Shown: positions 1 to 45,738 of the stretch, in pieces
Layout: the number at the start of each line of letters is the position of its first letter
How positions within the stretch are numbered: position 1 is the stretch's first letter
Assembly (NCBI GenBank): GCA_964537835.1
Contig: CAZICS010000001.1
Coordinates: 54,275-118,274 of the forward strand
Direction of reading: 5' to 3'
From: an uncultured archaeon
GTDB taxonomy: Archaea; Aenigmatarchaeota; Aenigmatarchaeia; CG10238-14; SCSR01
DNA: 64,000 nucleotides
The notes under the pieces: generated by a model
Databases searched by the model: none
Seen by the model: only the letters and a program-made list of their open reading frames with translations
Told to the model about the DNA's origin: nothing
Position numbers and translations under genes: made by a program

Positions 1-1
1 G

Positions 2-235
2 ATTTCTTCGGAGATACACCTGCTTCAAGATGAACTAGAAAATTTGCTTTCCTTAATAGATAAAAATTCCCTTGAATACCAAAAAGGGAAGATTTCAAGA
101 GAAGTTTTTGAGTCTAATGAAAAAAGGTTGAAAAAGGAGAGTGCTTTAAGGATAAAGAAAATTAATCAGCTAGTTAAAGAAGGATTAGAATTGCTTAAAA
201 AAGCTGAAAAGGAGATTAAAGCTCAAAAAGCTTAG
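2..235 (+). CDS. Small charged protein with a SHOCT-like motif, 5'-truncated by the window edge. The ORF-track TTG at 44 is probably internal.
   Basis: The same frame is open from nt 2 (ISSEIHLLQDELENLLSLIDKNSLEYQKGKISREVFESNEKRLKKE...). Its N-part parallels SSSQIKLLQEELEDVIL of the adjacent paralog at 244..540. GKISREVFESNEKRL resembles the SHOCT consensus (G.IT.EEF...K..LL). Confidence 0.5.
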   Translation: MSSEIHLLQDELENLLSLIDKNSLEYQKGKISREVFESNEKRLKKESALRIKKINQLVKEGLELLKKAEKEIKAQKA

Positions 236-243
236 GTTTTTAT

Positions 244-540
244 ATGGAGGTAATTAAAAAAATCGATTTGAGTTCAATAGAAGAATTCATGAAAGAAATA
301 GTAGCTTCTTCTTCCCAAATAAAATTGCTTCAAGAGGAGCTTGAAGATGTGATATTACATGCAAACGAGAATGAAAAACTTTTTTCTGCTGGAAAAATTT
401 CAAAGGAAGTTTATAAGAAGAATAAAGCAAGGTTAGTAAAGGAGAAGAATCAACTAAGAAAAAAGATAAACGTGGAGTTGAGTAAATTGATAAAAATAAT
501 CAACGAGACAAAAAAATTAATGGAAGCAAACCGAATTTAA
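244..540 (+). CDS. Small K/E-rich protein with a SHOCT-like motif; tandem paralog of 2..235.
   Basis: ATG start, 98 aa. It shares the motif LFSAGKISKEVYKKNKARLVKEKNQLRKKI with 2..235 and with the 537..2477 protein. It overlaps the convergent 537..2477 gene by 4 nt. Confidence 0.55.
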   Translation: MEVIKKIDLSSIEEFMKEIVASSSQIKLLQEELEDVILHANENEKLFSAGKISKEVYKKNKARLVKEKNQLRKKINVELSKLIKIINETKKLMEANRI

Positions 541-2477
541 ACTTTTAATTTTTTAAGTTCGTTCAACAATTTCTTTTTCCTTTCGATTTGGCTTTCTTTA
601 GCTTTTCTCTTAACTTTTTTTCTTCTTTTCTTCTCTTTAGCCTTTCTCTTTCTCTCAATTTTCTTTATCTCTTCCTTTAATTTTTCCTTCAGTTTCTTTT
701 CCTTTTCTTTCTCAGGTACAACCTCCTTAGATTTCTTAACTTCTTCCTTTTTAACTTCCTCCACTTCTTCGGCACTTCTTTCAGTTCTTCCTTTCACTTC
801 TTTAGCAGCTTCTTCCTTGCTCTCTTCAATTGGTTTTTCAGTTCTTTCCTTCAGTTTCTTTTCCTCTTCTTTACTCTCAACTTTTTTCTCAACCTCTTCT
901 TTCTTTTCTTCTTCCTTACTTTCAACCATCTCTTCAACTTTCTTTTCCTCTTCTTTAACTTCCTCTTTTTCTGCACCACCAACAAACTTCTCCAATTTTT
1001 TCCATTCTTCCTTTAACTTTTCCTCTATCTCTTTAAGCTTCTTCTCGTTAGCTCTTTTAACGTTTTCATATTCTTCTTTGCTTATCCTCTTCTCTCTAAA
1101 CTGCTCTTTCAAAGATTCTAGGAATAAGAGGATATTTTCCCTTTCTCTTTTCAGGCTAATTATAGTCTCTGGAAGCTTTGTTTGGAGTAAGGGTAAAACT
1201 TTATCTATTTCATCCAACCTTTTTCTAATTTCAATCAAATCCTCTCTTATAACATCCAAATCTTTCTTACTCACATAACTTTCTAACTTTGTATTTAATG
1301 CATCAACGCTCTTAATCAATTCTTTTAAGCTTTCATCAATCTCATCTTGCTTAGCCTTATAGACCACAAACTCATCCAAACTTTTGCTCAAATCTATGAA
1401 TATCCTTTCTGTTTTAGCTCCAACTCTCTCTATATACCTTACTGCTTCCTTTACCTCATCTACTCTCTTTTGCACATCTCTTGTAACTTTCATCAAGTTT
1501 TCAATACTCCCTATAGATTTAAGAATCTCATAGACTTTGTTTATTTTTTCAGCTAGATCCTGAGACTTCCTCTCGAGCTTTTCAAGAGTTAGTTGATGCT
1601 TTTCTATTATATCGTTAAACTCTCTGAACTTCTTGTTTATTTGCTGAGGTTTTATTTCCGAAATTTCATCCTCGATCTTTTCCATTTTTACCATAGCTTC
1701 TCTCAAGCTCGCGTCTGTTTGGAAAACCATAGACCTCAATTCCCCAATATTCTCAGAAAGCGTTCTTATAGTCTCATCTGTTGCTTGCTTAGCTTCCCTA
1801 ATTGTATCGATCATAAGCTTTAATTTCTCGATTTCTACCATCGCATCGCTTTTTACCCCCTCTTTTTCTTCATAAGTTTCAGTGGGAGCTACAGGTTGAG
1901 TTTGAACTTCATATACAGATTCAGCTTGGGTCCCATAAGGAGACTCGCTTTCTTCTTTTTTCTTCCTCCCAAAAATTCTTTGAAAGAATCCGATTTTAGG
2001 TTTCTCCTCTTTTTTTTCTTCCTTACTCTCAACAGGTTTTGCTTTCTCCTCTTCAATTTTTGCTTGAGCTAGTTCTTCTGCAATCATCTCTCCAACAGTT
2101 TTCTCTTCACTTGCTTCTTCAGATTTTTCCTCCTCTTTAACTTCTTTCTTCTCATCCTTTTTTGTTTCAACTCCTCCCTCTTTTCTAACTTCCTCTCTAC
2201 TTTCAACTTCTTTCTCCTCTTCCTCAACTTTTTGCTTTAATTTAAGCTTACTTCCCCCAATTTTTTTCTCTATCTCTTTCAATCTCTTCAAATACTTTTC
2301 TTTCAACTCTCGATAACTTTTCTCCGAAATATTGGCCTTCCTGTACTCATCTTCAAGATAACCTATCATTTCCTCCAAGTCTCTTTTTTCCTTCATTAGA
2401 TCTTCTTTAACTTCTTTCCTCTTTTTCTTAACTTTCCTCCTTTTTTTTCTCGCTATTTTAACCACCCAACCTCTCAA
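537..2477 (-). CDS. K/E-rich coiled-coil protein with two SHOCT-like motifs. The start is uncertain: the ORF track gives TTG at 2477, and in-frame ATGs lie near 2399 and 2369.
   Basis: Long ORF with extreme Lys/Glu content and KEE low-complexity flanks. The central ~300 aa has heptad-like coiled-coil character. Motifs ANISEKSYRELKEKYLKRL and KRISKEEYENVKRANEKKL match the SHOCT-like pattern of the two small upstream proteins. It is on the same strand as the giant ORF, immediately downstream, and overlaps its stop. Confidence 0.6.
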   Translation of the reverse strand: MRGWVVKIARKKRRKVKKKRKEVKEDLMKEKRDLEEMIGYLEDEYRKANISEKSYRELKEKYLKRLKEIEKKIGGSKLKLKQKVEEEEKEVESREEVRKEGGVETKKDEKKEVKEEEKSEEASEEKTVGEMIAEELAQAKIEEEKAKPVESKEEKKEEKPKIGFFQRIFGRKKKEESESPYGTQAESVYEVQTQPVAPTETYEEKEGVKSDAMVEIEKLKLMIDTIREAKQATDETIRTLSENIGELRSMVFQTDASLREAMVKMEKIEDEISEIKPQQINKKFREFNDIIEKHQLTLEKLERKSQDLAEKINKVYEILKSIGSIENLMKVTRDVQKRVDEVKEAVRYIERVGAKTERIFIDLSKSLDEFVVYKAKQDEIDESLKELIKSVDALNTKLESYVSKKDLDVIREDLIEIRKRLDEIDKVLPLLQTKLPETIISLKRERENILLFLESLKEQFREKRISKEEYENVKRANEKKLKEIEEKLKEEWKKLEKFVGGAEKEEVKEEEKKVEEMVESKEEEKKEEVEKKVESKEEEKKLKERTEKPIEESKEEAAKEVKGRTERSAEEVEEVKKEEVKKSKEVVPEKEKEKKLKEKLKEEIKKIERKRKAKEKKRRKKVKRKAKESQIERKKKLLNELKKLKV

Positions 2478-3560
2478 TCCTCTTTTCTATCGATTCTAAG
2501 TAAGTTTCTGCCATTCTGAATGCACCTGTCTTAATCTTATCCTTAGCTATGTTAAGCTCGATCTCTATATCATAAGTGTCGATCTTCTTTTTCTTCAACT
2601 CCTCTATTTTCTTCTCGAACTCCTCTATTTTCTTATTTAGTTTCACATATTGATTAATTTCATCGTCTGTTAGAGCGAATGGTGAGTGTAGCAATGGCCT
2701 GAAGCTAATGAACCATGGTTTTCCATAGTTATACTCTGGGTTCTGGAACAGTCCAGTTCCTATGGTAAGCTTAGTAACCTTAGAAGCATAGTCAGCACCA
2801 TACTTCGATTTAACCCTTCCTATATCTCCTTCATACTTGGTTCTTAGCTGGATTTCGTTTGCGATATTTGCTCTTATTGCTCCCTTGAAATCTAGTAAAA
2901 CTTGTGAAATTAAGAATAGACCAATTCCCCACTTTCTGAATTCTCTGCAAGCTCTTTCTATGGCTACATAACCTCCCTTCCCTCCATATTTTGGCAACAG
3001 CCTGTGAACCTCATCGTATACTAACAACAGCTTAATTTCTTTAGATTCAGGAGGTCTCATGTCGAATATGGCTTGAATGCTTCTTCTGACAAATCTGTCG
3101 AGCTGCTCTGGTTTGAGTCTGTTCATCACGAACACGGTGATTTCTCCAGGTCTCATGTACTTCTTAATATCTATTGGCATATCTGGGTCCTCAACCAGTA
3201 CTATGTTAGTCTTGAATCCTCTTGCATCAGTTGGTTTCAATCCAAACTTTGGATAGAGGTCAAGCATAGCCTTGAGTCTGCATGGTTTCATGAAACCAGT
3301 CCATTGAGCAGTTGGGTCAAATACTATTACAGGAATCTTTCTCTTTAGCAGTTCTTCTGCACAAACCATTGCAGAGACAGTTTTACCAGATCCAGTACCA
3401 CCCGCAGCTATAGAATGCATTATTAGTTGAGACAAGTCAAGGTAAGCTTTAACATTAGTTTCAGCTATTTTTCCAACCTCTATTGAATTGGGCCCAGGCT
3501 GAGGCAATTTCTTAAATTCTACAGGAGCAATATACCTTGCTTTAGCAGCTTTAGCAGCTC
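2458..3560 (-). other. Cytoplasmic HerA/FtsK-superfamily (DUF87/AAA_10-like) P-loop ATPase domain at the C-terminus of the giant protein.
   Basis: Walker A IAAGGTGSGKT is encoded at about 3381..3419. A D-P-x-x-x-W motif (VIVFDPTAQWTG) follows it. Walker B LLLVYDEVHRLLP is encoded at about 3007..3033. The domain lies right after TM2 and ends in a K/E-rich coiled-coil tail (KLNKKIEEFEKKIEELKKKK). Confidence 0.65.
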
Positions 3561-6500
3561 TATAAGCAGCTATCCATTTCATTCCTATTATAATGGAAGG
3601 AATGCCAACGAACAAGATTATGTAAGTTAACCAATGCATGAAAATAGTTCTTAAGATAAATAGCGGCAATGGCAAAACAGTTACATCAAAATTGTCTGAA
3701 GCAGTTGCATACTTAGTTCCATACCAATAGGTTGCATTCACTTCTATCAGATACTTACCTTCTGGCGTATCCTTTGGAATTTGAATACTCTCTCTATAAG
3801 TTAAAACTGTCCTTACTGCTTTAGTTTCCTTGCTCGTTGTTATTACCTTACTTGGATCGTACAAGGATCTTATGGTGTAGGTTACTGTTATATCCTCAAT
3901 TTTCTCGGTTTGACCCATGTTTATTAGCTTAACTTCAAAAGTTAGATTTTGTCCAGGATTTACAGCTTTTGAAAGTGCAGTTACCTTTACGTCTAGCAAT
4001 GGCTCTAGAACGGATTTAACAGTAATGGTTACCGGTATTCTATCCTCTACATCACCAGCTTTAACTACTATGTCACCAGTATAAATTCCGGGTGCTATGG
4101 TTACTGGAGCATAAGCTCTTATAGCTGTTGTTCCCAAATCTTTTGGACCTACGTTAAACACAGGCTTTTGAATGGTTAGGAGTTGAAATGCAGGACCTTC
4201 TACGGTTATTCTTACGCTGATAGTTTTGTCGAGATTATTGGTTACATGGATGGAGAACAATTTTTCTTCTCCTGGTACTAGAGTAGTTTCTAATAAAGTT
4301 GACTTAATTTCTACAGGAGCTAGAGTAACGTTTGCCCCACCAGGCCCAACTCCAGGAGGTATGGCAGGAATTGCCGGCAAGGTGATGGAGGGTGCAGCAC
4401 CTGCTGCGGGAGGAATTACTGGAGTGGGCGCAGGTGGTAATGTAGGACAGTCGGTTGGGCAATTATTAGTCGATTCTCCATATTCACTTTCACATTCCCC
4501 GTTTCCACAAATAAATTCAGCTATTATGTAGGCACCAGTTAAATCAGTTAAATTGGCTTTTACATAGAATGCTGATAAGTTAACTGAGTTATCACTGTTA
4601 TCTCTGTTCGGATTTGTAATTCTTACCCATAGGTTGTTTTGAGCGGTTGTTATCTTTGAAGTCCAATTTCCTCCATACTTGTAAATTCCTATCCTAGTTG
4701 GGTCATAAATAGGAACATTGCACCCACCTTCAACACAATCTGAAAAGTTTATGTATAAAATTGAGTAAGATGGTTTGAGAATCGTGTAAACATAAATTGA
4801 TTTAATTGCACTACTAGTCATTCTTACTGGAGGAATCTCTCCAAATATTATCGGGTTGAAGTAGTTTTGAGTTAAGCTCAAATTGTACATTTCTATTCTA
4901 TGAGTAAATCCAAATTCTTTAAGCTGGATTTTTAAATCATATGATTTTGCATCTATAGTTTCATTGTAATAACCAGTAGTTAGGTTTGGACCAAAATCGA
5001 ACCTAGTTATGTTTGTACCCACGTCAAAGAATGTGAAATTAAGATTGATTGGAGGTTCGCCCAAAAGTTCAACATTCTTTGCATACCCACTAAATATAAC
5101 TGTCGGGTAAATCTCAAAAGTTTTAGTTTCAAGAGCACAATTTCCTGAAAGGTCACAAGCAGTTACATTTATAGTATAATTGCCCAATTGAGAGGTATTC
5201 GAGAAGTTGAATTCGTATAAGTAAGTATCATCGGCTTTTGAAACAAAAGTTAAAGTAATTTTTTCAGTTGAATTGTCAGGGTATTTAATAGTTCCGCTCA
5301 CATTCTTTATTCCACCTGCTTCTACTATACTCGCCCTTATGTTTACCGTAGAGTTTGCAGGTATTCTTACAGGTATTATTAAGGTTATGAGGGGTGGTAC
5401 GTTGTCCTTATAAACTATTGAATCCTCTTCTACATCACTCCTAACCAATACCCTTGTTCCGTTATAAGTAGCAGTTATATTCAAGCTATAAACTCTAGCT
5501 ATAGCTAGGTCAGGAGCTATAAATCTAACTCTCCACAATTTTTCTGTACTGTTGTAGAAAGCTAGGCTAATGTTTGCGAATTTTGAAATAGTGGAATTGA
5601 ATATAGAAACGTTAAAGCTTACGTTTTGAGTTACATAACTTGAGTTTGCACTTATGTTTACCTTTGCTTCAACAGTGTCGTTTGGAAGTATTCCTGTTAA
5701 GGGTTGGACTTTTGTCGGATAAACTATTTTAACCTTGTAGACACTAACAAACATGCTTACAAAAGTTGTTTGCATTTTAACAGAAGCATTTTCTCTTAAT
5801 GCACCTGTAATATTGCTTATTATAGTTCCTGTATAGTTTGTATCATAGGGTATATCTGGAGACGAATAGTTTATATAAACCGTCTTTTGACCAGCATATG
5901 GTAAAGTAATTTCACTTTCACTCAATCTTAAGTAAGATTTAATCGTTCCATTAACTACCAAACTCAAGTTTATCTCAGCATTTCCTGTATTTATGATAGT
6001 TAAACTTCCAAAGTAGCCAGTATCATTTTGTAAAACACTTCTATGAATTTCTTTTTCCACATGTTCCCAAGAGATGTTAACAGGGACGCTTATGTAAATT
6101 GGTAGGTAAGCTGCTTTACCATTCCAACTTATTTCTATACTTCCATTCCAGGTCCCTGTTTGATAGTTAGTTGGAACTTTAATGCTTACATTAACCTTTC
6201 TCGTCTCCCCAATCGGAATCAAAGTGAAATTACTTGGTTTAAACGAAACGTTAAAGTCTTCACATACTTTCCCACTCTTACACGTTATGCTTACATTTGT
6301 TACATTCTCATTTCCTATAGATTTCAAGGTAAAGCTTGCATTTCCTATACTTCCACCAGGAATTATCTTGGTTATATTATCTTCTAAAACTCTAAGCTTT
6401 GGATTTGGCGTAACATTTATTAAGATGCTCTTCCTGCTTGAATTATAGGTATTGTTAAGATTTCTCCATCTTGCAGTCAGGTTTATGTAGTAAATTCCTG

Positions 6501-9500
6501 CTTTAGTACCGTTTGGGATTATTATTTTGGTTAGGTTAGATTTAGAAGTCCACTTAAGAATAGTACCAAATTTGAAGAAGTCCGGTGTAGCACTTACATT
6601 GCTAGAAGAATTTATGGTTAGGTTAGAATCGAAAGCTCTTGAACCGCCAGTATTGTTTAGAGTAATATTAATCGTGAAGTTCTGACCATACTCGATTGTT
6701 ATATCATCTGCCGTTATTACTGAAACATTCGGCAATATTTCTAGCCAGGTTGTTGCCGAACCTTCTACAGCTGTTGGTGAAGTACAAGCTTGTAAGGAAC
6801 GAGTATCGTTTGCACATATTCTAATCAAGTGAATACCTTCCATGAGACTTATATAAGTTGTGTTATAAATATCTCCTGCAAACTTCTCCATGAATTGAAT
6901 GTAGGTGGAACCGTTCGGTAGGGTTACATTTATCCATGCTTTATCAACAGCAAAGTTATCTGTTATCTTTGCTTGAACTGTCACATTTTCATAACCAATT
7001 TCGAATACAAGCGGTTTGATCAAAACATCAGTAATAATTGGTGGGATGTCCGTTACATTTAAGGTAATGTTTGTAATTCTTTCAGGTGGATTTGCAAAAG
7101 TTACGTTTCTTATTACTATTTTTACTGTATAAATTCCCTCTATAGCATTTGCAGGAACACTGTAATCTACGGTAACATTTCTTGAAATCTGTTTCTCTAG
7201 ATCAAATGCTCTAGTTTGAGGAACTCCTGCAGGATAAGCTGAAATAAAGATACTACCATTTCCTTGCTTTAGAATTTCGAACGGTATCTTAACATTTCCT
7301 ATGTTCTTTACAGTTATATTTCCTATAGTACCACTTGTATTCAAAGGCAAGAGAACTGTTCCAAATGTTTCTGGCTCTCTTAGCCAAGAAGTATTCAAAG
7401 GTATGCTTATATTCAAAAGCATTTCATCAAATCCAGCATTGCTTGTACTTGCTCTTATCTTAGTCCAATATATGCCTGGAGATTGACCAGCAGGTATGGT
7501 TATGTAAATATGGGAGAGCATGCTTTCTCCAGCGAGTAATAAGCCAGTTTCGCTTGGATTAATAGTCAAAACACATAGAGGACAATCTATTGCAAGATTT
7601 CCTCCTACTGCACTCAACTCAACATCCCTAAGTTCATCATTTCCAGAGGCTATGGTTGTTACATTCCCAACATAAGTTGTTGCATCATGAGGTGCCGTCT
7701 TGTTTATACTCTTTGGAGTAATTTCTACCACTGGGTTTGAAGAGACAGTTATTGAAGTTAAGTTTGAAGCATAATCTATTGAAAGATCAGGATTTCTCCA
7801 AGTTGAGATAACATAAGTTCTTATTAGCTGGGGTGCTGTTTTAGCTGGTACGGTAACTCTAAAGGTCCAATTACAAGATTGGCCAGCGTAAAGAGTTCCA
7901 CATTCTTTTCTAGTTTCGTTATAAACCAGAGAACCAATAGGTTCTTCTTGATGAGTTAGATTAACCGAATAAGCAGTAGCTGGTCCAAGGTTAATGAACG
8001 TAACGTTTACTTCAAACGTAAAGCTTTGGGTTTGTGTTATACCATAGGCTACTATTTCTTGAGGTTCTTGTTTAACTAAGCCAGAAATCTTACCCCAAAC
8101 GCTTAAAGTACCTACAAAAGTACTGTTGATGTTATATTCTGGTCCAGCATCCTTTGCGTATACCGTAACATTATAGGTTCCTCCTATTGGTGGAGTATAA
8201 ATTGCTCTATAGGTTGCTTTGAAGAAACCAAAGCTTTCTTCGGGTACAGTAATGTTAGACATCGGAAGTATTACTGGTGTGCCATTTGGCATGGTTATAT
8301 TTGCCCATGCGGAGACTACCCGATAATTATCTATTATAGTTGCAGTAATGTTTGTTGAGTTTAAGTTTGCTTCTATGCTTGAATTGGGTAAGAGCGAGGT
8401 ATTATAAATCTTGGGAGGTTCTATATCTTTAACCCAAATAGTTTCTGTAGCTTCTTTTATATTTGCTGAATAGTATTGGGTAACATTATCACCTATCTTG
8501 CATTTGAATGTAATATTTCCTTTTTGTTCTGGAGTAAAGTTATAGCTTGCATAACCAGTGACATTAGTCTGATAACTCCCATTGAATATGTATTCAGTAG
8601 AAGGCTCCCACTTGTAAGAGAAGTTGACAGTATAATCAGAAATTCCAGCCTTGGACACGCTATCTTCAACTTTACAGGTTGGTGCAAAAGTATTTGGATA
8701 GGGAACTATTCCTGTAGGCGAAATCCAAATTACATCTGCTAAGCTTGTTATGATTATGCTTACATTATCTATTCCATCATCGTAGTAGGGTAGGGTTGCG
8801 ACTGCCATTATTTGATGCGGTCCTGTCTTTTGTTCAGCAACTATTGATTGAGCCAAGAAAGTTTCCATTCCTTCAGCAATCTGTGCAGTCTCGTTATACC
8901 ACTTAACACTTGGATTTAACTCTGCAAAACTTTCTCCATTCTCGCTAGTACCATTTGCCTTCAGAGGAATTGATTGTGATTTAGAGTAATAACTTCCATT
9001 TACAGGCTCTATTATGGTCAAATTGAGAATTCCTTTTATTGTTATGATAGTTGTGTTTGTATCTGAATCCTCATTTTGTGGTCGAGTTGCATTTATGTAA
9101 AATGTATACGGGCCTGGTATCCATGTGTCAGCTACATTAAAGTTGATTAAAGAGCACCAACCGCTTGAATTTGTTAAGCAGCTATCCAAGAAATGAGTTG
9201 AATTATAGAAGCTAACGTTTGCATTATCCGCATCCCCTATTCCTGCATCTTTAACATGAACGCTTATATTAGTTGCATGAGGACTGAATGTATCATTTCT
9301 ATAAATCCAAGCATATTGGCTCACTATTTTGTCGATTATTAGCGGTCTTGATAACCTAATCCAAGTTTCTATCTGCGAAATTGAAGTATTATAATAAAGA
9401 GTTGAATTATCCTCTATTGCACAAGTTAAATTGTACCATCCAGCAGCTTCTCCGCTTGTATACCAAGTAAGACTTGCATATCCATCAGCATTTGTTAATC

Positions 9501-12500
9501 TTATTCCTAATAGTTCACCATTCTTTAGGAATTTAACCGAATAATTAGCTATAGATTGAGTAGTGTTACTATCTCTTACATGACAGGTAATTGTTATTGG
9601 CACACCTGCTGAAGAACTTGTTCCATTGGATGGAGAAATAGAATCTAATTCGCTCCATCCATATATGTAAACTAAGCTACTGTTGCTATTAGAGTCATAA
9701 TATTCCCTTGAAGCGTTCGCATAAATTATTTCGCTACCAAGCTTGTAATTCTCTGGGACATCCCATAGAGTATTATAACCACTTGCTAAGAGATGCCAAC
9801 TAGAATTATACCAGTTTATGGTTGCATCTGCTATTTGCTGATTACAATCATCGCTTACGCTGGCATTCAAAGTAGTTTTAATCCCCCTATTGATTATAGT
9901 TCCTGTTAATGGATGAATAAGTGAAACGTTCAATTGACCATAAACTGTTAAAGTAACGTTTGATGTGTTAACAATCTTATAACAGCTAAATCCATCTTTT
10001 TCTACAGTTCCACCAATCCAGTATTGTTTTCCAGCTATAGTATCGCAAGTTGGGTCATGGTAAGCGTTACAATGACCGTTCAAGGAAGTACAGTTATATG
10101 CTAGCGTATAAGTTGATCCATCTTCAGTAACCCAAATGGTTCCGTTGGCTCCGGTAACATAAGCTCCATTATCTGAATCATAAATTATAAATTCTAGGAA
10201 TGCCTGATTATTCCCTATCCTTCTTACACTTGAATTGCTGGCTGGATTTATGCTCAAGCTTACATCATCTCTTTCCAAAGTAATATTTTTAGAAATTGTT
10301 TCGTCAGTGAAGTTGAAAGGATCTGTTGTATTGAATTTGTAGTAGAGATAAGGAGATTGTCTAGCATAATCTTCGCATGTAAATCTATGTTTAAACGTAA
10401 CGTCTACGCTTATTCCTTGAACGCTCTTCGACTCAACCAAATACCAAGTTATATTGTCATAGCTCTTCCATAAGCTTAGATTATTTATATTTAGGTCGGC
10501 ATCTGTGAAAGTAACTGTAAAGGTATAGAGTTCTCCCCAACCTCCGAATGAGTGGTCAACTCTTGGGTTGCTTAAAGAAGGTTTATCTCCAAGGAAGAAT
10601 GCCTTTACCTTTAGTGTGGAGTTGCTAGCATAATAATCTTTGCTTACATCCATACTAACATTATACCATCCTTTTGGCTTTCCTGCTGTGCTTTTCGTAC
10701 AATTATACCATCCTTGTCCTTCATCCCAGCCATCATTATCTGCTATAGTGCACTGATAAGGAGAACCCACTTGAGGTATGAACGTATAAACAACAGTTGC
10801 ACCTTCAACAGCTTCACATTCGTCATGTAAGCTTCCATTTATGGATACAAGATCACCTCTTAAGTATCCTTCCCCATCTGGATAGACGATTGAAGGTAGC
10901 AATAGGGATTTAATTGTTAGAGTATAATTGGTTGAGTTCTTATCCTTATAACAAACATCATTATAAACTCCGCCAAACCACTTTTGAACACCTGTTTTGA
11001 AGTCACATCTTGTTTGCCCAGGAGGTAACTCTAGCGGGAATTTATAAATCAAGTTACTTTCTAGGTCTGTTTCTGTAATCTTTTGGCTAGCAAAAATATT
11101 ACCATCCTTAGTTACCCAAAAGCTTCCATTTACTCCATAACCTGCAAGATTTCCTGAGTCCGCATCTATAACCTTTAGAGTTAAGTTTATGTAAGCACTT
11201 CCATTTCTCCAAACCCATTCGTTATCCCCGCTAACCAATTGCAAACTTACATCATCCTTTTCTAAGGTGAAATTCTTTGGTTCGATAGTAGTTTCGTACA
11301 ATTCTCCATAAAGCAATGGACTGTTAGGATCATCTGTTGCATTAAACTTGAATTCCCAAATATGTGGATAAGGATCGTCTCTGCTTGCTTCACAGCTCCC
11401 TCTTGTCCAGCTTAGGGTTACAGTTTTGTTTATAACTGGAGAATCTAAATTCGTTTTATTTGCTTGAATCCAACTAGTTGAACCATACCTTCTTACGTAT
11501 AAAGTTAAATTGACAAAATCATAATCCTCATCTGTTACTGTAACATTGAAGTAGAACCTTTCTCCCCATCCTCCAACCTCACTACCTTGAGCAGATATTA
11601 CAGAGAGATTAGATAAAACTGGTTTTGTTTCTATGAAGAATTCTTTTGTTCTTGTTATAGACCTATTGATGAAGTATGGACCTGAAACGTTTATCCTTAC
11701 ATCGTACCATCTTGCCTTCATGTCAAAAGTATTTCTGTTACATCTATAAACTCCTGTTGCAGGGTTTGTTATTTCTGTACAACTATAACTTTTACCCGTC
11801 TCATTATGGACAGCTTCCATGGTTATTATAGCTGGGTCTATCTCACCACCACAGTCATCCTTTATTGCTACCTCTTCAGCAATTCCAGGATAGCCTGCAT
11901 CCAAAGTTACATTTTCTTCTGAGCGTAAGACTGTATCATCTGTATAATCTCCTTGTCTATATCCACTTGGATAATAGACGAAATCTCCATATATTTCTAA
12001 AGTGTAGTTTGTTGTATTTTGTTGAATAAAGCAAGCATCAGTCACACTCCCTTTCCATTTCTGCAACCCAGGATAATAATTACAGTCTGGATTGAAGTAA
12101 TAGGTTACGTATCCAGAAGAGTTTGTTTTATTAGTTTGCGCTAGGAAAGTGCTTCCATCTTTGGTTACATAGAAGGTTACTGTAGCATTATAAGCTGGAA
12201 CATTTCTATCTGTGTCATTAACTCCTAGTACAAGCAAAATAGTATTTCCTATATCGCTATCAGACCTATTAACCTTAGAATTATTCCCTGAAATGTAATA
12301 GATTACTACATCATCTTTTATTATGCTTGGAGCGGGTATGTTGCTAGTATTAAATATGTTTGTTCCATCATCGATTTGCCATTTGAAGTAAACCAAGCTC
12401 GTATTTATTTCACTACATTCAAAATTACTAACGTTTACTTCACATGTTCCTTTTCCATTGTAAACAGTGTCATTACCTCTATAAACCCAACCCTTTGAGG

Positions 12501-15500
12501 TATAGGTAAACAATTTGCAAGTCACGTTATCGAATTGAGCATCATCTATATCTACTCTAAATGTAAAGGTTTCTCCCCATCCTCCAACTTCAGGATAAAC
12601 GCTTTCATTTTCTGCTATTGGTGGGGTGTTATTTAGATAAATCCAATCTTCGAAGATAGTCGAGTTCGAATAGTAATAATCTCTCGATGAGTTAACTCTT
12701 ATATCATAATAACCTCCTTTATGGAAGCTTGTATTCCAGGTTGAATAGTACAATCCATTACCTTTCTCGTTCGCTGGATAAGGTTCAATTAGTCTAATTT
12801 CTCCTATTGAAGAAATTTCTTCGAACGAAACATTTGCTGAACTAACATTTTCTCCGCACTCTCCTTGAATTAAACCAGTAACATTAATAACATTTCCAAC
12901 AGGGATTACACTATCTTCTTCAGGTTCAACTAAGAAATTCATCAATTGCCCTATTAAAGTAATTTGTTGATTTCCTGTGGTTGCTGTAAAGTAACAAGCA
13001 TCTTCTAGGTCAATCTTCCAGTACTGAATACCAACATCAAAAGTACAATTTGGATCAAAGGTATAATTAAAGTAGCCGTTAGTTTGAGTTACTAATTTCT
13101 TGTCAAACAAGAAGTTCAAGCCATCTGTTGTTATATAAATACTTCCGTTTACGTCAGCAAAGTCTATTTCCGTTCCTTTTATAGTGTCATAGAACTTAGC
13201 AGCAAACCAAGCGCTATCATCACCAGGTCTTGTAATTTGAGTTTTCGACCAGTCTACATCAGCTACATCCGCTTGGTCTTTTGTAATTGTTATAGAACTT
13301 GATTTTTCATCCGTATAGTTGAAGTTATCGCTTGCGTTTATTTTATACATCTTACTTCCTATATCGCTATAAGTTCTGTTGCAAGTAAAAGTAATCGGAT
13401 AGAATTCTATATTAGTACAATTTCCAACAGCTGGAACACAAACTTTTTGATCAGCTAATTCCCATTCTCCAGTTAGATTAAGCCAGAAGTAAACGTTTAT
13501 AGTAGAACCTAGTTGAGCATTGTAATCTTCATCTTCAACGCTGAATGGGAAGTGCCAATTATCTCCCCATCCTGCCGAACCAGTATCTGTATAAACAGTT
13601 CCTAAGGTAATAACAGGCTTTGAAGCAAGATAGTATGAGTTTATAGTCAAATTAGTTTCACTTGCATTATAATACTCTTTTTCAGCTTTGATTGAAATGT
13701 TTGTATAACCATAGAGCCATGTTGGTTCTGGTTGAGCAGTAGTATCTGCCCTGAAAACACACTTATAAATTCCAGGAGATTCTTCAACTATCTGACCTGG
13801 TGGACTTTGATCTTGCACGCAATCTTTCTCTGAAGGACTTGCACCCAATTGTTGAGATTTAATGGTGACGCTTGCATTACTTACACCTCCGCATTCGTCA
13901 GTTACATTAACTCTTACAGGTACGTCTTCTATACCCTTAAGGAATAGTTTAGCGTTTAATGGCTCCAACAATTCTATTTGGAGAGGAAGTGTAGTTATGT
14001 TTATTGAGAATTCACTTGAATTAGAAGCCTTGTAAGCTTCTGAATACAAAACACCAGCTTTCCATTTCTGTGGTCCAACTTCATAGCTACAGTCAGGATC
14101 AAATTCTCCAGCAGAAGTATTTATAAAGCCGCTTGAGAAAATAGCAGGTACTTCTGAATAAGTTGAACCATCTTTAGTTACCCATATTCTTACATTAGAG
14201 CTTAAAATACCAGCTATGACATCGATTCCTTTATCTATATCGTAAGTTTTAACGCTTAGCTTCTGATAACTATCGTCAGCTCTGTAAACGCTTGTTTCAT
14301 TACCTTCTGCATGAATTAGAAGCAAATCATCTTTCCCTATAACAAAACTTCCATTTCCTACCTCAAAAGTATTGTTAACAAAATCTTTAGTCGTATTCCC
14401 AAATACATCTTTTACTTCACTTACATTAAACTTGAAAACATGTGTTCCTAATCCAGGATTACTGTAAGTTGGCCATCCTTCTATTTTAAATGTAACTGTT
14501 ACATTAACACCTTGAACGCTTGAATTTGTCATCGGGATTGGCAATGGTTGAGCCCAATCTCCTTCCACTAAGCTAGAGTTAACCCAGAGTTTAACTTCTA
14601 AGATATCATCATCCTCATCTGTAACATTAACCCTAAAGTACCAAGTTTCTCCCCAACCACCATCTCCAACATTCTGTTGCGAGTCATAGCTTATCACATA
14701 AAAGTCTGTAGTTAGGATTGGCTTAGTTTCAACCCAATACCCTTTTTCCCAAATTTGGAATTGGTCTATGGTTTCATTAGAGTTGTAATATTCTTTGCTT
14801 ACATTAAACCTTACATCCCAACCCTTGGCAGAAAAGCTTGAAGTATTGATTGTACAATTGTAATAACCGCTTCCTTCATTCAATACAGGGTTACAATATT
14901 TCACATCATTTCCTTGAATCGAAGAGAAGTTAACGCTTGCATCCTGAACAAAAACATTGCAGTCATCAACAACATAACCTCTTAGCAATACATTTTGTCC
15001 ATCTGGATAATTTCCTCTTAAGTATTTCCCTCCTCTAGGTTGAGTTATAACAGGTTTTAGGTCTCCAATAATTGTAAGTGTAGAGTCACTTATGTTTTTG
15101 TCTATGTAGCAAGCATCCGTTATTCCAGCTTTCCAATTTTGTAAACCTACCGAATAACTGCAATTTGGATCGAAATAATAGGTTGCATTCCCTAAGCTAT
15201 CCGTTTGATTTATTATATCTAGCTGATAATTAGAACCATCATGAGTAACCCAGAAGCTTACATCAACACCTTCAACTGTAGAATTCTTCTCCACATCGAA
15301 AATGTTAACTGAAAGTAATACAGCACCAATACTCCTATTAACTATTGAGTTATTACCTTGGATTAGAGCTATAACTGCTTCGCTTTCTTTCAACTTAGGT
15401 GCATTGATTGGAGTTGTATTGTAATAATTAGCCGGCTCCCCATTCTTTATCTCCCACTTAAACCAATTATCATTACCTATATCGCTGCAAGTGAAACCTT

Positions 15501-18500
15501 GGTAAGGAACCCAGCAAGTTCCTTTAGTAGGTGTACCAGGGGTTCCTGTTATGGTATAACTTCCTACTTTCTCCCAAGTTATTCCATCATCCTTGCTTAT
15601 GTATAAATTACAAGTTATTGTATCTCCTTCTTGGTCATAGATATCGATCGTAAAGTTAAAGTAGCTTGACCATCCTTTATACTCATCAAAGCTTAATTCT
15701 TCCCAGTCACCTAATACATAATTATAAACATAAACGCTAACATTCTCGCTTGTAGCGTTCACATTCTCTAGCCAGAACCAATTGTTATAGAGTGAAGAAT
15801 TAAAGTTGTAGTACTCCTTGCTTGCATTCAACCTAATACTCCAATATCCTTCTTTCTTAGCAGTAGAATCCCAAGTACAATTATACCATCCATCATACTC
15901 ATTATAAGCTGGAGTACAACCCTCCCAATTACCCAAAGGACTTCTTAACTCAATACTAACGCTAGCATTAGCTATTAAACCTTCATTCAAACAATCACTA
16001 GTAGTATTAAACCTAATCAAAATCTGATCAGTAACATTGAATACAGAATTATAAACAGGTACCAACAAATTATTCTTCAATTGGCCACGAATGGTTATCG
16101 ATTGAACTGTGTATCCGCTGATTGCACTAGAAGTATAACATTCATCACCCACATCCATTCTCCAATTTTGTATACCTACTGAGTAACTGCAATTTGGATT
16201 GAAATTATAGCTTAGATAACCTGAACTATCAGTAGTTAAAGCGATAGGCGGACCATAGTTCGCATTATCATAGGTTATTCTAATTGTACCATCAACTCCA
16301 CTTCCAACATATTCTCCTCTATCCCTATCATAAACTTGGGCTTGCAGTAAAACTGTTTCATCTTCTCTGTCAACTTCGCTTGGAGTTGTTGTTGCATAAA
16401 GAACGACATCATCTTTAATTATTTGTTGTTGTTGAGTTGTTGAAACTGTGTAATTCCAATAGTCTGTTGCGGTAACATTGAAAATTCTAGTTCCCATATC
16501 AGAGCAAGTGAATGTATTCTTGTAAGTGATGGTTTTAGTAATCTTACAATCAGGAGCAGAACAAATGCTTGAGTTTAACAATTTCCAGCCATTTGTAGTA
16601 TTACTCCATAAGCTAACGTTAAGTTTTTCAAAACTAAATGTTCCTTGATCTTCATCATACAGATCTATATCGAATATCCAAGTTTCTCCCCAGCCATAAG
16701 GATTAACAGAACTTCCAAAAGAATCTTGGGTTGTTATAGTTAAAGCACTTATAGTTGGTTGAGTAACCAAAACAAATGCATTCTCTTTAAGCAACACATC
16801 TGAACTATTGTAATAAGTCTTAGAAGCATTTATGGTAGCGTTATAATATCCTAAAGTCCAGGTTGAAGGATCGAAGGAATAAGTTACATAACCGCTCGCA
16901 TTGGTAAAGGCTTGAGCCGAATGAGTAGTTGCACCCTGTTTGGCTTTAAGGTCAACTAAAGCTGATGCTACTCCACCACAATCATCGTAAACATAACCTA
17001 GATAATCTACAGTATCTATACCCTTCCTATAGCTTTCACCATTTGGTTTGATTAAGCTAACTTCCAACGGTGTTGTTATCAAGGTTAAGTTCCATGCTGG
17101 GTTTGCGGGAGTGCTCCAAGTTGGCTTATAGCAGCTTTGTCCAAAGAAGACCTTCCATTTTTGAGGTCCTATATCATACAAACATCTATCTGAAGATGGG
17201 AAGTTATCAGTAATATATCCATTTGGTTCTATCGTATTTAGTTCTAAATCTTTCCTATAATTACTTCCATCATAAGTAACCCAGAATTGACCTAAATCAT
17301 TGTAAGCAACAGGGTTACCCGTATCTAAATCTTGAATTTGTACTTTCAGCGGAACCCTTTCACCATTGGTAACATTACTCCTATTAAGGATTGCATTATT
17401 CCCGAAAATCAAACTTATGCTTATGTCATCCCTTTCCAAACTAAAGCTTCCTACGGAAGATTCAGCATAATCCTTCTGAGAGCTAGCTGGAGTAACAGTC
17501 GAATAATCATCAGTACCATTAAAGAAGAATTCATGCGTAGCGTTAGTAAGTAAATCATCGCATACAAATGATGTAGTGAATTCTATTATTGCACTTTCAA
17601 CACCAGCAGCTTTGCTTTTTCCGGTAATCGGTGGTTTCACGCTCCAGCTTCCACCTCCAGGTCTCTCGTAGAACCATACTTGAACTTGATCTAAGTCTTC
17701 ATCCGTAACATTAACTCTGAAAGTCCAAGTCTCCCCCCATCCACCTATATTCCCTCCTTGTTCTGACTCGACGCTTGTTGATATTAATTGAATTGTTGGT
17801 AAAGTTTCTATCCAGAATGCATTTGTTTCTGTATAATCTACCAAATTATAGAATTGCTTCTCAGCATAAACTCTAATATCATAATACCGAGGCGACTTTC
17901 CGCTTGAATTGAAGGTTGTATTGTAATAGCCTAAGCTTTCTTGAACATGTTGCAAGTAGAAGATATCGTTAGTGTAAGTACTCTTAACTGAAATATTTAG
18001 GTAGTCTGGGTCGATTAAATTGTTACAATCCTCGCTTATGTTAAACCTTATGGAAACATTTTCTCCACGATAAAATTCTTCTGCATTCAATGGTTGAATT
18101 ACTTGAGTTGACAAGCTTCCTTTAATAGTTAGATTCCATGTGTCAGAGTATACGTCAAAATAACATGTTTGACCTTCTATAAAGGTTGTCCAGTTTTGAT
18201 ACCCAACTTGATAAGTACAATCTGGAGAGAAATCATAAGCTGCATAGCCTAAGCTCGTATTAACTTCAGCTGCTGTCAAATAATTACTTCCATCGTAAGT
18301 TATGTTGAACTTAACTGGTGTATTATCTGCAACCGCACTTCCTTTATCCTGGTCATACACATAAACCTTTAGGGTTAAAGTTCCAGAATTTCTATTAACT
18401 TCTTTCCCATCTCCGCTTACAATACTTATTTGTAAGGTATCTTTGGTTATGTTTGGTCCTTGTGAAGTTTCGGTATTAACTGTATTATACCCATCATCTA

Positions 18501-45342: not shown

Positions 45343-45738
45343 ATGATGTTGAAAGGTTTTTTGAACAAGAAAACTCAGGAAGAAAGTGTCGAAAATATAA
45401 TTAAGAGGCTTGACATGCAATACGCTCATCTAGCTTTAGAGTTTGAAAAAATTAAGCTCTTGAACGAAAAAATCGAAAAATTGAATTCAAAGATTAGAGA
45501 GATTGAGGAAATGATTTCTCGTGGTATCAAGTTTCAGTCGAGAAGTGTGTCGACAAGAACAAAAGAAGCAATTAAACTAATCCTTAAAAAATATGGAGAG
45601 TTGACTTCTGAGCAACTAAGCAAAATACTTAAACTGTCGAGAACGAGGTGTAACGAGTACCTGAAAGAGATGGAAGAAGAGGGAATAGCCAAGTCAAGAA
45701 TTTTCTGTCGAAAAAAGCTATATTCTCTTCGACAGTAA
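45343..45738 (+). CDS. Small coiled-coil plus C-terminal winged-helix DNA-binding protein, a putative transcriptional regulator.
   Basis: 131 aa. The N-terminal half is coiled-coil (LEFEKIKLLNEKIEKLNSKIREIEEMI). The C-terminus GELTSEQLSKILKLSRTRCNEYLKEMEEEGIAKS is HTH/wHTH-like. It is divergently transcribed from the giant gene. Confidence 0.6.
   Translation: MMLKGFLNKKTQEESVENIIKRLDMQYAHLALEFEKIKLLNEKIEKLNSKIREIEEMISRGIKFQSRSVSTRTKEAIKLILKKYGELTSEQLSKILKLSRTRCNEYLKEMEEEGIAKSRIFCRKKLYSLRQ

Follow-up and report, generated by a model that had tools for sequence, protein, structure and literature searches.

A probable membrane-tethered HerA-clade ATPase at the end of a giant archaeal surface protein

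In a tiny symbiotic archaeon of the DPANN group, a giant glycosylated surface protein very probably ends in a membrane-tethered, cytoplasmic ATPase tail of the HerA clade. Its gene is a single uninterrupted open reading frame of 14,236 aa in the window, by which we mean the whole 64,000-nucleotide stretch of DNA that was analyzed (Table 1). The fuller reading, to which we assign a probability of about 0.5, is that such tails would assemble into a ring-shaped translocase at the foot of a host-contact fiber.

Architecture and topology of the giant protein

All 654 N-x-S/T sequons of the giant lie between its two TM segments, and none falls in the 404-aa tail. Sequon density follows suit in the tail family, whose best 150 cluster representatives have 5.2 per 100 aa on the upstream side of the TM helix and 0.23 on the downstream side. 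Together with the K/R-rich stretch YRAAKAAKARY directly after the helix, these distributions place the ATPase tail in the cytoplasm. The helix itself extends through this basic stretch to aa 13876 (window 3541); the AF2 model contains helices at 320-330 and 332-362 (model numbering) and predicts one long TM helix. Expansion of the extracellular part in the Aenigmatarchaeota clade of the window has produced a glycosylated chain that exceeds 13,000 aa.

The C-terminal 722 aa form a base module that matches stand-alone family members of about 725 aa, with 47% identity over 663 aa to one such protein (L003). It comprises a Cys-rich knot, a Pro/Gly linker, two Ig-like domains, the TM helix, the ATPase, and a C-terminal helical bundle, and was modeled by AF2 with a mean pLDDT of 84. 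The Cys-rich segment is also found in the stand-alone homologues, where it follows a signal peptide. The Ig-like pair (AF2 strands 105-315, model numbering) gave Foldseek matches of the WxLIP/RbmA type. In the AF2 model, a tether of about 25 residues holds the ATPase directly beneath the membrane; the tether and β-hairpin align with HerA residues ~118-143 (HMMER, 4d2i). By the same model and alignment, the HAS barrel is absent from the tail, and the TM helix occupies its place. The C-terminal three-helix bundle is family specific, with model residues K697 and Y709 invariant, and is a candidate docking site for the coiled-coil partner described below.

At the other end of the chain, Pfam matched HTH_IclR (33.1 bits, cutoff 22) and MarR_2 (29.7 bits, cutoff 27). 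This wHTH and the first TM segment are kept in orthologues P0351 and P0352. Paralogues with a wHTH-TM-Ig arrangement and no ATPase also exist; therefore, the wHTH may be an anchor module of general use. An assembly chimera as the source of the fusion was ruled out by the same open frame in ~30 independent metagenome-assembled genome (MAG) loci. Upstream of the ATPase, the frame in these ~30 Aenigmatarchaeota species continues without a stop for 3,333 aa or more, as far as the retrieved DNA extends.

Table 1. Positions of the giant gene, its parts, and the downstream gene in the window
Feature	Position	Strand	Basis
Giant ORF; N to C: cytoplasmic wHTH, TM1, ectodomain of ~13,700 aa, TM2, HerA-like ATPase, helical hairpin	2458..45168	-	
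Cytoplasmic wHTH (aa ~7-60) and first TM or signal-anchor helix (aa 94-112)	44833..45168	-	Pfam, KD scan
Conserved 722-aa base module	2461..4626	-	L003 alignment, alignment A1, AF2
Cys-rich segment CGNGECESEYGESTNNCPTDCP, then Pro/Gly-rich linker	4444..4509	-	
Two membrane-proximal Ig-like β-sandwich domains (NPCBM_assoc/MG2-like)	3682..4314	-	Pfam, AF2, Foldseek
TM stretch, single pass (aa 13834-13869)	3562..3669	-	KD scan, AF2
Short tether and β-hairpin ahead of the P-loop, YIAPVEFKKLPQPGPNSIEVGKIAETNVKAYLDLSQLIMH	3415..3534	-	HMMER alignment to 4d2i, AF2 model
RecA-like ATPase core, HerA clade	2701..3486	-	
Walker A AAGGTGSGKT (aa 13921-13930)	3379-3408	-	
Walker A core GGTGSGKT; K13929, equivalent of HerA K154	3379..3402	-	
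VIVFDPTAQWTG	3295-3330	-	
Strand 2 and family motif VIVFDPTAQWTGF; D13951, equivalent of HerA D176	3292..3330	-	
Walker B DEVH, LLLVYDEVHRLL (aa 14047-14058)	2995-3030	-	
Walker B and next loop LLLVYDEVHRLLPK; D14052, E14053, H14055, basic loop R14056...K14060	2989..3030	-	
ERACREFRKWGIGLFLISQVLLDF; R14078 and K14079, equivalents of HerA R381/K382, then ISQ strand	2887..2958	-	4d2i alignment
C-terminal three-helix bundle (aa 14168-14235)	2464..2667	-	
Coiled-coil partner, ~640 aa, translationally coupled	537..2477	-	

Class and catalytic residues of the tail

Pfam DUF87 (PF01935) matched the tail with an E value of 1.6e-11 (45.2 bits, gathering cutoff 23.2), and HerA_C also scored over its cutoff (28.4 bits). 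A family profile searched against the PDB found HerA 4d2i at 4e-11, far ahead of FtsK (0.06) and TcpA, and Foldseek matched HerA at 1.4e-12. Pfam, the PDB profile search, and Foldseek thus agree with the first-pass annotation, which had placed the tail in the HerA/DUF87 class rather than among ABC or classic AAA proteins; no analysis of this sequence reproduced its additional label "AAA_10-like". Walker A, Walker B, the TM helix, and the ATPase fusion that it described are all in the sequence at slightly offset coordinates. Walker A lies at 3379-3408 instead of 3381..3419, and Walker B, with the His at the DExH position (H14055) as described, at 2995-3030 instead of 3007..3033. The TM stretch, at 3562-3669, therefore reaches ~30 nt past the upper limit of 3640 set for the region.

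The check proposed at that stage, for a HerA-type Glu and Arg, found both present and invariant: E14053 aligns with the catalytic E356 of HerA, and R14078 corresponds to R381. The latter belongs to ERACREFRKWGIGLFLISQVLLDF, which aligned to AREGRKFGVGLTIVSQ of 4d2i and is invariant in alignment A1; the basic loop HRLLPK past Walker B is conserved in the same alignment. Equivalents of HerA K154, D176, E356, and R381 do not vary across 49 diverse homologues sharing 38 to 74% identity with the query, and Walker A, DExH, and RExRK motifs occur in 150, 146, and 150, respectively, of the best 150 cluster representatives. In HerA, these four residues are essential by mutagenesis (residue roles in PMC4351679, PMC5715905), with R381 acting in trans as an Arg finger (PMC4351679); the finger of DUF4297-HerA is R455/K456 (PMC11291478). 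Judged from the sequence, the DUF87 score and the family-wide motif conservation far exceed chance, and the tail is predicted to be a HerA-clade P-loop NTPase of the FtsK-HerA superfamily with an intact catalytic apparatus. The conserved, putative trans Arg finger argues for an oligomeric ring, and the tail is probably an active ring ATPase.

Although it lies within the HerA clade, the tail is no orthologue of the repair helicase HerA, an identity rejected on the missing HAS barrel, the TM helix at the barrel's place, and the lack of NurA. Compared with Sulfolobus HerA (4D2I), it also lacks a clear four-helix-bundle insertion and the NurA/Mre11/Rad50 context, while adding the C-terminal three-helix bundle, a membrane tether, and continuity with an extracellular chain. 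TrwB/VirD4/TcpA and FtsK/SpoIIIE are more distant from the tail than HerA and VirB4: Pfam FtsK_SpoIIIE stayed under its cutoff, and T4SS-DNA_transf matched 51 profile positions around the P-loop only. Those proteins have two to five TM helices versus one here, where relaxase or T4SS genes and a gamma or all-alpha domain are absent.

Family spread and gene neighborhood

The tail family is large and mostly DPANN, with 1,044 matches, of which 372 clusters reach an E value of ≤1e-30. Lengths exceed 1,000 aa in 113 of the best 150 representatives, and a TM helix stands just ahead of the ATPase in 140 of 147; the longest database representative has 7,665 aa. Ectodomains vary (Ig-like, PKD, Kelch). 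The family architecture is thus extracellular domains, a TM helix, and a HerA-like ATPase, and the tail in the window is its conserved base module. At unfused loci, the ATPase gene adjoins genes for proteins of 1,191 aa, >1,889 aa, and 3,406 aa. No description of a surface protein-TM-HerA-type ATPase design was found in the literature.

Coupling to a K/E-rich coiled-coil protein encoded immediately downstream, suggested in the first-pass annotation, gained strong support from synteny. The partner gene is present in 48/52 loci and begins a median of 4 nt past the ATPase stop in 32 of the 33 loci with enough downstream DNA; in the window, its start (probably TTG 2477 or GTG 2465) overlaps the giant's stop at 2458-2460. 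The partner is membrane-binding. Its termini are very basic (15 K/R among the first 30 aa and 35 among the final 70), it carries an amphipathic motif, KIGFFQRIFGRKKK, conserved as KxGxFxxLFGKK, and its conserved core (aa ~163-477) is all helical and filament-like; it has no detectable homologue with known function. Genes around the ATPase overwhelmingly encode secreted or surface proteins, including a second giant in 17/33 loci and, in L001-L004, small ORFs with signal anchors that separate the giant gene from the ATPase. A ParA/MinD-like gene occurs in 23/52 loci. No conserved multi-pass channel (CedA/VirB6/ComEC-like), nuclease, or relaxase was found beside the gene in the loci examined.

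Possible functions of the tail

Given a trans Arg finger, the tails would have to oligomerize into a ring, probably a hexamer, for ATP hydrolysis. In such a ring, TM helices would be gathered together with the bases of several giant fibers, and the central channel would face the membrane, as in TM-anchored TrwB/VirD4, FtsK, CedB/CedD, and EccC. The coiled-coil partner and, in many genomes, a MinD/ParA-type ATPase would join it to make up the cytoplasmic foundation of an organelle for host contact. We tentatively favor, at slightly under even odds, a polymer translocase at the fiber base or contact site, for which DNA or another polyanion would rank ahead of protein as the likeliest substrate.

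DNA itself is a possible but doubtful substrate. Hints toward it come from the nearest structural relatives (HerA, DptH, VirB4, TrwB, and FtsK), which work on DNA or take part in its transfer, and from the wHTH in the same polypeptide, the basic partner termini, the ParA/MinD-like gene, and a crenarchaeal precedent. CedB and CedD, the nearest functional precedent, are TM-anchored archaeal HerA-clade ATPases that are located at the membrane and required for DNA import during cell-cell contact (PMC11868833). In contrast to them, the tail lacks a VirB4-like N-terminal domain and a CedA/CedE multi-pass channel partner, its match to CedD (38 bits, NCBIfam cutoff 600) is confined to the P-loop region, and it belongs to a DPANN protein with a huge extracellular part that Ced lacks. 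Against DNA transport, six single TM helices would be a poor DNA conduit, no channel, nuclease, or relaxase is a conserved neighbor, and the missing HAS barrel is the DNA entry tier of HerA; MinD/ParA proteins, moreover, can position membrane complexes without contacting DNA. The sole invariant family feature is the covalent link to varied ectodomains, and a surface-protein-centered role fits at least as well as DNA transport.

One rival reading, which we consider unlikely, is a clustering or mechanotransmission switch, in which ATP-dependent ring assembly is itself the function and no polymer passes through the pore. Host contact of the ectodomains might join the tails and turn on the trans-Arg-finger ATPase, or a nucleotide-driven ring might bundle, position, or tension the fibers together with the coiled-coil scaffold and MinD/ParA. 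An ectodomain-TM-ATPase link that is the only invariant architecture across hundreds of clusters with unrelated ectodomains fits a switch, as do the short modeled tether, the partner's amphipathic motif and filament-like core, and the frequent MinD/ParA-type gene. However, the HRLLPK loop is conserved as for a pore loop, and mechanotransmission via a single helix from a RecA-type ring has no experimental precedent. To our knowledge, no characterized member of the FtsK-HerA superfamily is purely a switch; all are translocases.

Also unlikely is a protein-handling motor that would move no DNA and would instead export protein subunits, pull them out of the membrane, or build them into a fiber organelle, like T4SS VirB4 or like T7SS EccC/EssC. 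The latter are membrane-anchored FtsK-HerA ATPases amid secreted-protein genes that energize export of protein, not DNA. The secreted and surface genes nearby, the second giant, and the small signal-anchored ORFs speak for such a motor, as does the lack of conserved DNA-processing genes; candidate substrates would be the large surface proteins encoded nearby or small anchored ones. Cis export of the giant's own ectodomain, raised in the first-pass annotation, is unlikely because the ATPase is the last-translated part of the chain and is made only after that ectodomain. In archaea, Sec is expected to export such proteins cotranslationally, which also counts against a protein motor, and neither WXG/LXG-like substrates nor an additional channel subunit was found, nor any pilin or prepilin-peptidase signature beside the gene in fused loci.

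A degenerate pseudo-ATPase kept as a cytoplasmic structural plug or anchor is highly improbable: nothing specific favors it, and the Walker A Lys, strand-2 Asp, Walker B Asp-Glu, and Arg finger are invariant in the 49 homologues, with corresponding motifs in 146 to 150 of the best 150 representatives. A DNA-repair or anti-phage HerA placed beside or fused to a surface-protein gene by accident or misassembly, to which weak NCBIfam and PADLOC HerA matches might point, is effectively refuted by scores far under cutoff (37 bits versus 800, 25 versus 970), the missing HAS barrel, the absence of NurA, Mre11, Rad50, SIR2, and DUF4297 genes from the window and related loci, the TM helix that precedes the ATPase family-wide, and the recurrence of the fusion in ~30 species.

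In its very long, repetitive, Ig-like-rich extracellular chain, the giant resembles DPANN SPEARE proteins, the Omnitrophota giants, and bacterial RTX/Bap adhesins. None of these is reported in the literature examined with a terminal cytoplasmic HerA-type ATPase and a wHTH at the opposite end; they are exported by T1SS or Sec, without a built-in motor. They belong to small-celled or host-dependent microbes and are presumed adhesins.

Identity of the C-terminal ATPase

The C-terminal ATPase of the giant protein, here called the tail, matched Pfam DUF87 (PF01935, "Helicase HerA, central domain") with an E value of 1.6e-11 and 45.2 bits (cutoff, 23.2) and Pfam HerA_C with 28.4 bits, above its cutoff of 22. 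Among PDB sequences, the top match of the tail was Sulfolobus HerA (4D2I). A profile of 49 family members retrieved the same structure with an E value of 4.3e-11, compared to only about 0.06 to 0.07 for FtsK and the coupling protein TcpA, and a Foldseek search with an AlphaFold2 (AF2) model ranked HerA in first place (E = 1.4e-12). The fold is RecA-like and nearer to HerA or VirB4 than to other P-loop classes. As sequence searches and structure comparison agree, we place the tail on the HerA/VirB4 side of the FtsK-HerA superfamily. This is the class that the first-pass annotation had proposed from sequence alone, and Pfam, the PDB profile, and Foldseek all led to HerA. An ABC or classic AAA+ identity was ruled out, as no ABC or AAA-lid/sensor-2 profile matched; ABC and AAA families were absent among Pfam, NCBIfam, and PDB matches of the tail at an E value of ≤0.1. 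NCBIfam holds no model for the family of the tail, whose top matches there were CedD (38 bits) and crenarchaeal HerA (37 bits), far under cutoffs of 600 to 970 bits.

In Sulfolobus HerA, K154 (Walker A), D176, E356 (Walker B), and the trans-acting arginine finger R381 proved critical when mutated (PMC4351679); the role of K154 was also reported elsewhere (PMC5715905), and an equivalent R/K finger is at work in DUF4297-HerA (PMC11291478). HMMER alignments to 4D2I paired these four residues with K13929, D13951, E14053, and R14078 of the giant protein, all invariant in the 49-sequence alignment, and matching catalytic motifs were present in 146 to 150 of the best 150 cluster representatives. Specifically, K13929 lies in the Walker A motif GGTGSGKT, found in all 150, and D13951 is the strand-2 Asp of a "DP" motif in which VIVFD13951PT pairs with VLIFD of 4D2I. 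In Walker B, LLLVYD14052-E14053-VH pairs with IIAVIEEAH, and both the Asp and the Glu are invariant in the alignment. The arginine finger CREFR14078-K14079-WG pairs with AREGR381-KFG, and an RExRK motif occurs in 150 of 150 representatives. The HerA-type Arg and Glu, whose absence the first-pass annotation had named as a refutation of its assignment, are both present and invariant (R14078 and E14053). Together, these data demonstrate that, by sequence, the tail is an intact HerA-clade NTPase; an oligomeric working form best explains the invariance of the predicted trans-acting finger.

Features of the giant ORF and of neighbouring genes, with positions in the window
Feature	Residues	Window position	Strand	Basis
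Giant ORF, uninterrupted	14,236 aa	2458-45168	-	
wHTH, then TM/signal-anchor helix ending SLAIA/SN	1-112	44833-45168	-	Pfam
Hint/intein-like insert	~253-400	~43969-44412	-	Pfam
Hydrophobic stretch, 36 residues	13834-13869	3562-3669	-	Hydropathy scan
Walker A AAGGTGSGKT	13921-13930	3379-3408	-	Translation and motif script
VIVFDPTAQWTG		3295-3330	-	Translation and motif script
Walker B LLLVYDEVHRLL	14047-14058	2995-3030	-	Translation and motif script
Partner ORF		537-2477	-	
Amphipathic motif KIGFFQRIFGRKKK of the partner	~161-174	~1956-1997	-	
Small wHTH protein		45343-45738	+	
Mrr-AAA gene		62231-63727	-	

At 14,236 aa, the giant protein is the longest version of the family found in this analysis; archaeal proteins of more than 10,000 aa are rare according to a survey of giant genes (bioRxiv 10.1101/2023.11.21.568195). 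Every one of its N-x-S/T sequons (654 of 654) lies between a hydrophobic segment at aa 94-112 and the 36-residue stretch near the C terminus, the 404-residue tail contains none, and the basic stretch YRAAKAAKARY directly follows the second hydrophobic helix. Based on sequon placement and this basic stretch, the tail was assigned to the cytoplasm and the middle of approximately 13,700 aa to the cell exterior. The AF2 model of the last 722 aa (mean pLDDT, 84) contains two Ig-like sandwiches, one long transmembrane (TM) helix, a RecA-like core, and a C-terminal three-helix bundle. The tail is covalently continuous with the glycosylated ectodomain via a single TM tether. The first-pass description of a TM helix followed by an ATPase was correct in content, while its coordinates were off by 2 to 12 nt and the TM helix passes slightly beyond the upper bound given for it.

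The tail was also compared with known members of the superfamily. Only about 45 residues, comprising the tether and one hairpin, separate the TM helix from the P-loop, and HerA's HAS barrel is therefore missing. CedB and CedD are TM-anchored archaeal HerA-clade ATPases that are required for DNA import, and the architecture of CedD has been described (PMC11868833). Unlike these proteins, the tail has no VirB4-like N-terminal domain between TM helix and ATPase, its CedD match is restricted to residues 93-154 and far from the cutoff of 600 bits, and no multi-pass CedA-like gene is conserved near the ATPase loci. The tail likewise fell short of the TraC/VirB4 equivalog score and lacks the VirB4 N-terminal domain; its Pfam match to T4SS-DNA_transf was confined to the P-loop region, and FtsK_SpoIIIE scored 16.3 bits, under the cutoff of 24. 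An orthologue of the repair helicase HerA was rejected on the lack of an N-terminal HAS beta-barrel and of the corresponding gene context, as no NurA, Mre11, or Rad50 gene was found in the window or related loci; NCBIfam HerA models gave 25 to 37 bits against cutoffs of 800 to 970. A defence HerA (SIR2-HerA or DUF4297-HerA) was rejected because HerA-core matches were weak and effector genes were absent. Overall, we conclude that this is a HerA-clade motor whose membrane and ectodomain architecture is new, as is its partner.

Distribution of the family and its coiled-coil partner

A word-indexed search returned 464 homologues of the tail, of which those with named sources are almost all from DPANN lineages (Aenigmarchaeota, Nanoarchaeota, Pacearchaeota, and Micrarchaeota), and an exhaustive search of 1.84 billion representatives gave 1,044 matches, 372 of them at an E value of ≤1e-30. 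Complete members of approximately 725 aa consist, in order, of a signal peptide, a Cys-rich segment, a Pro/Gly linker, two Ig-like domains, a TM helix, the ATPase, and a helical bundle. These members align collinearly with the last 722 aa of the giant protein, the stand-alone homologue of locus L003 with 47% identity over 663 aa. Among the best 150 of the 1,044 matches, 113 exceed 1,000 aa, 61 exceed 2,000 aa, and 18 exceed 4,000 aa, with a maximum of 7,665 aa. In this set, a strongly hydrophobic segment immediately precedes the ATPase in 140 of 147 representatives, and sequons are frequent upstream (5.2 per 100 aa) and scarce downstream (0.23 per 100 aa). Database entries label the family "DUF87 domain-containing protein, partial" or "hypothetical." Full-text literature searches found no description of the architecture, partner, or distribution; an earlier mention (Iyer et al. 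2004, subscription journals) is possible.

A scan of GTDB species genomes located 44 loci with 60 to 93% identity, nearly all in Aenigmatarchaeota metagenome-assembled genomes and many of these from hot springs. Since the ATPase frame remains open as far as the retrieved DNA reaches (at least 3,333 aa upstream) in about 30 of the 44 loci, fusion of a giant ectodomain to the ATPase is the rule in this clade and not an assembly artefact. Where it is unfused, the ATPase directly follows a large surface protein (1,191, >1,889, or 3,406 aa). In one close relative (L005; JGI 3300050342 Ga0527077_0545, positions 1-11203), the ATPase is 85% identical and the sequence lines up in order with the final 3,700 aa of the giant protein, with the match broken by frameshifts into six reading-frame segments; this locus is either a decaying pseudogene or an assembly with indel errors.

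Other arrangements were seen in individual members. In loci L001-L004, the interval from a separate 3,406-aa surface protein to the 725-aa ATPase contains four small conserved ORFs (approximately 177, 200, 46, and 303 aa), of which three have an N-terminal anchor; no counterpart of these ORFs was detected in the giant ORF of the window. The same loci also encode, farther downstream, a prepilin peptidase (Peptidase_A24) and a DUF1512 protein. In many family members (P0258, P0263, P0273, P0280, P0287, and P0298), the ATPase is followed by a long linker, acidic or rich in Pro, and by one or two copies of a motif of approximately 60 aa, F.LENG..L.S..EL...L..M.D..F..HVN..KNDFA.W....F....LA.K, and in P0312 and P0313 a K/E/R coiled coil of approximately 400 aa takes the place of linker and motif.

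The ORF directly 3' of the giant ORF, which encodes a K/E-rich coiled-coil protein (the partner), overlaps its stop codon. In 48 of 52 loci, the helical core of the partner (aa ~163-477) follows closely after the ATPase; independent clustering of downstream ORFs recovered the partner in 32 of 33 loci, where it begins a median of 4 nt past the ATPase stop. Together, these data demonstrate that the partner is strictly co-encoded with the ATPase. Its family comprised 87 matches, and the AF2 model shows long helices throughout. Pfam returned only noise, profile sequence searches gave no PDB relative, and a Foldseek search with the model gave nothing significant (best, the FAT domain of FAK at an E value of 0.33 and a CdvA filament at about 0.7). 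A PADLOC match to DruC (1.2e-4, 18.7 bits) was judged to be coiled-coil noise. A fusion of ATPase and partner was rejected, as BLAST of the partner core against 143 representatives new to that search detected none; in some representatives, long K/E/R coiled coils or a different repeated domain follow the ATPase.

Both termini of the partner are very basic, and its amphipathic motif (family consensus, KxGxFxxLFGKK) is conserved. This motif resembles the C-terminal membrane-targeting helix of MinD, a likeness that we treat as a lead only. Similar motifs (K..LFGFL..RKK) occur in C-terminal extensions of the ATPase homologues P0307 and P0327. A SHOCT-like repeat, I-S-x-K/E-x-Y-x-E/x-L-K-x-K-Y, lies near both ends of the partner and at the C terminus of a 325-aa Ig-TM protein of L003 (11693-12670), with a tblastn cross-match between them, and may be a shared docking peptide.

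A gene for a MinD/ParA-type ATPase was present in 23 of 52 loci (14 of 33 by ORF clustering, 0 to 9 kb downstream, within L009-L052). Also downstream were a second giant surface protein of approximately 1,960 aa (17 of 33 loci) and a 154-aa multi-TM protein with an HExxH motif, IHELSHV (19 of 33 loci). The window ends approximately 540 nt past the partner gene, and this stretch contains no minus-strand ORF; the other 19 kb encode chromosomal housekeeping functions (UbiA prenyltransferases, geranylgeranyl reductase, GH57 and glycogen enzymes, and TrmB regulators). One further gene fuses an Mrr-type restriction-endonuclease domain to a classic AAA ATPase (Mrr_cat, AAA, and AAA_lid_3) and may be a defence gene; it is unrelated to the giant protein.

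Possible roles of the motor

From the conserved trans arginine finger alone, we infer that the tails would assemble into a ring, probably hexameric. This ring would be pressed to the membrane, its channel running perpendicular to the bilayer, and would bundle several fibres. The proposed membrane-facing geometry is that of TrwB/VirD4, FtsK, EccC, and CedB/CedD. To our knowledge, every characterised member of the FtsK-HerA superfamily is a polymer translocase, and for this reason we favour, by analogy, a host-contact organelle with a translocase at its base. For the substrate of this translocase, DNA is the first guess because the nearest relatives act on DNA, a winged helix-turn-helix (wHTH) domain is part of the same chain, and the partner has basic tails and a ParA-like neighbour. 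No channel protein or DNA-processing enzyme was found conserved near the ATPase in the window or related loci, and six single helices would form a poor conduit, which is a real weakness of DNA translocation. A role centred on the fibre fits equally well, either as protein handling of the VirB4/EccC type or as an ATP-dependent switch for clustering or mechanotransmission, and the invariant linkage of the ATPase to varied ectodomains speaks for it. The ATPase comes last in translation, which makes it unlikely to drive export of the protein's own ectodomain in cis.

With either role, the cell's largest surface protein is directly joined to an energy-consuming motor of HerA/VirB4 type, which bears on how DPANN archaea attach to hosts and exploit them, and the conserved module of motor, single TM tether, and coiled-coil partner spans hundreds of DPANN protein clusters. 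A motor that moves DNA or protein at host contact would add a new type of device to archaeal cell-cell transport, and one that only clusters fibres would be a new use of the FtsK-HerA ring. A far-reaching version of the translocase, which we consider improbable, is an unrecognised DPANN-wide trans-envelope machine in which a HerA ring motor, covalent host-reaching fibres (up to >13,000 aa), and a membrane-binding coiled-coil scaffold would drive the passage of DNA or some other polymer between the symbiont and a host cell in contact with it. DPANN archaea are ultra-small symbionts. If such a machine existed, it would constitute contact-dependent uptake or exchange built from parts unrelated to T4SS, Ced, or competence channel and pilus components, and it could account for the way in which nucleotide-auxotrophic DPANN archaea live off their hosts. 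Experimental handles include a soluble tail of approximately 360 aa with predicted catalytic mutants (K13929, E14053, and R14078), a defined partner, and a predicted ring below the fibre bases.

N terminus of the giant protein

The N-terminal wHTH matched HTH_IclR (33.1 bits) and MarR_2 (29.7 bits), each above cutoff. As this domain precedes a TM helix, both ends of the giant protein would be cytoplasmic unless the chain is processed. The orthologues P0351 and P0352 begin with the same wHTH-TM arrangement, as do small wHTH-TM-Ig paralogues (P0359, P0360, and P0363), and the wHTH is conserved in close orthologues only. It was rejected as a general trait of large family members, most long representatives of which begin with an ordinary signal peptide or anchor.

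A Hint/intein-like insert (Pfam Intein_splicing, E = 1.7e-4) was found inside an Ig-like domain, and NCBI names the orthologues "Hint domain-containing." The insert has a TxxH block (VTEGH) and ends in VWSSN/L rather than in HN plus Cys, Ser, or Thr, and it therefore resembles a bacterial-intein-like autoprocessing domain, which might cut the N-terminal anchor off the fibre. On the opposite strand, a gene transcribed away from the 5' end of the giant ORF encodes another, small wHTH protein (HTH_24, 32.7 bits), a candidate local regulator.
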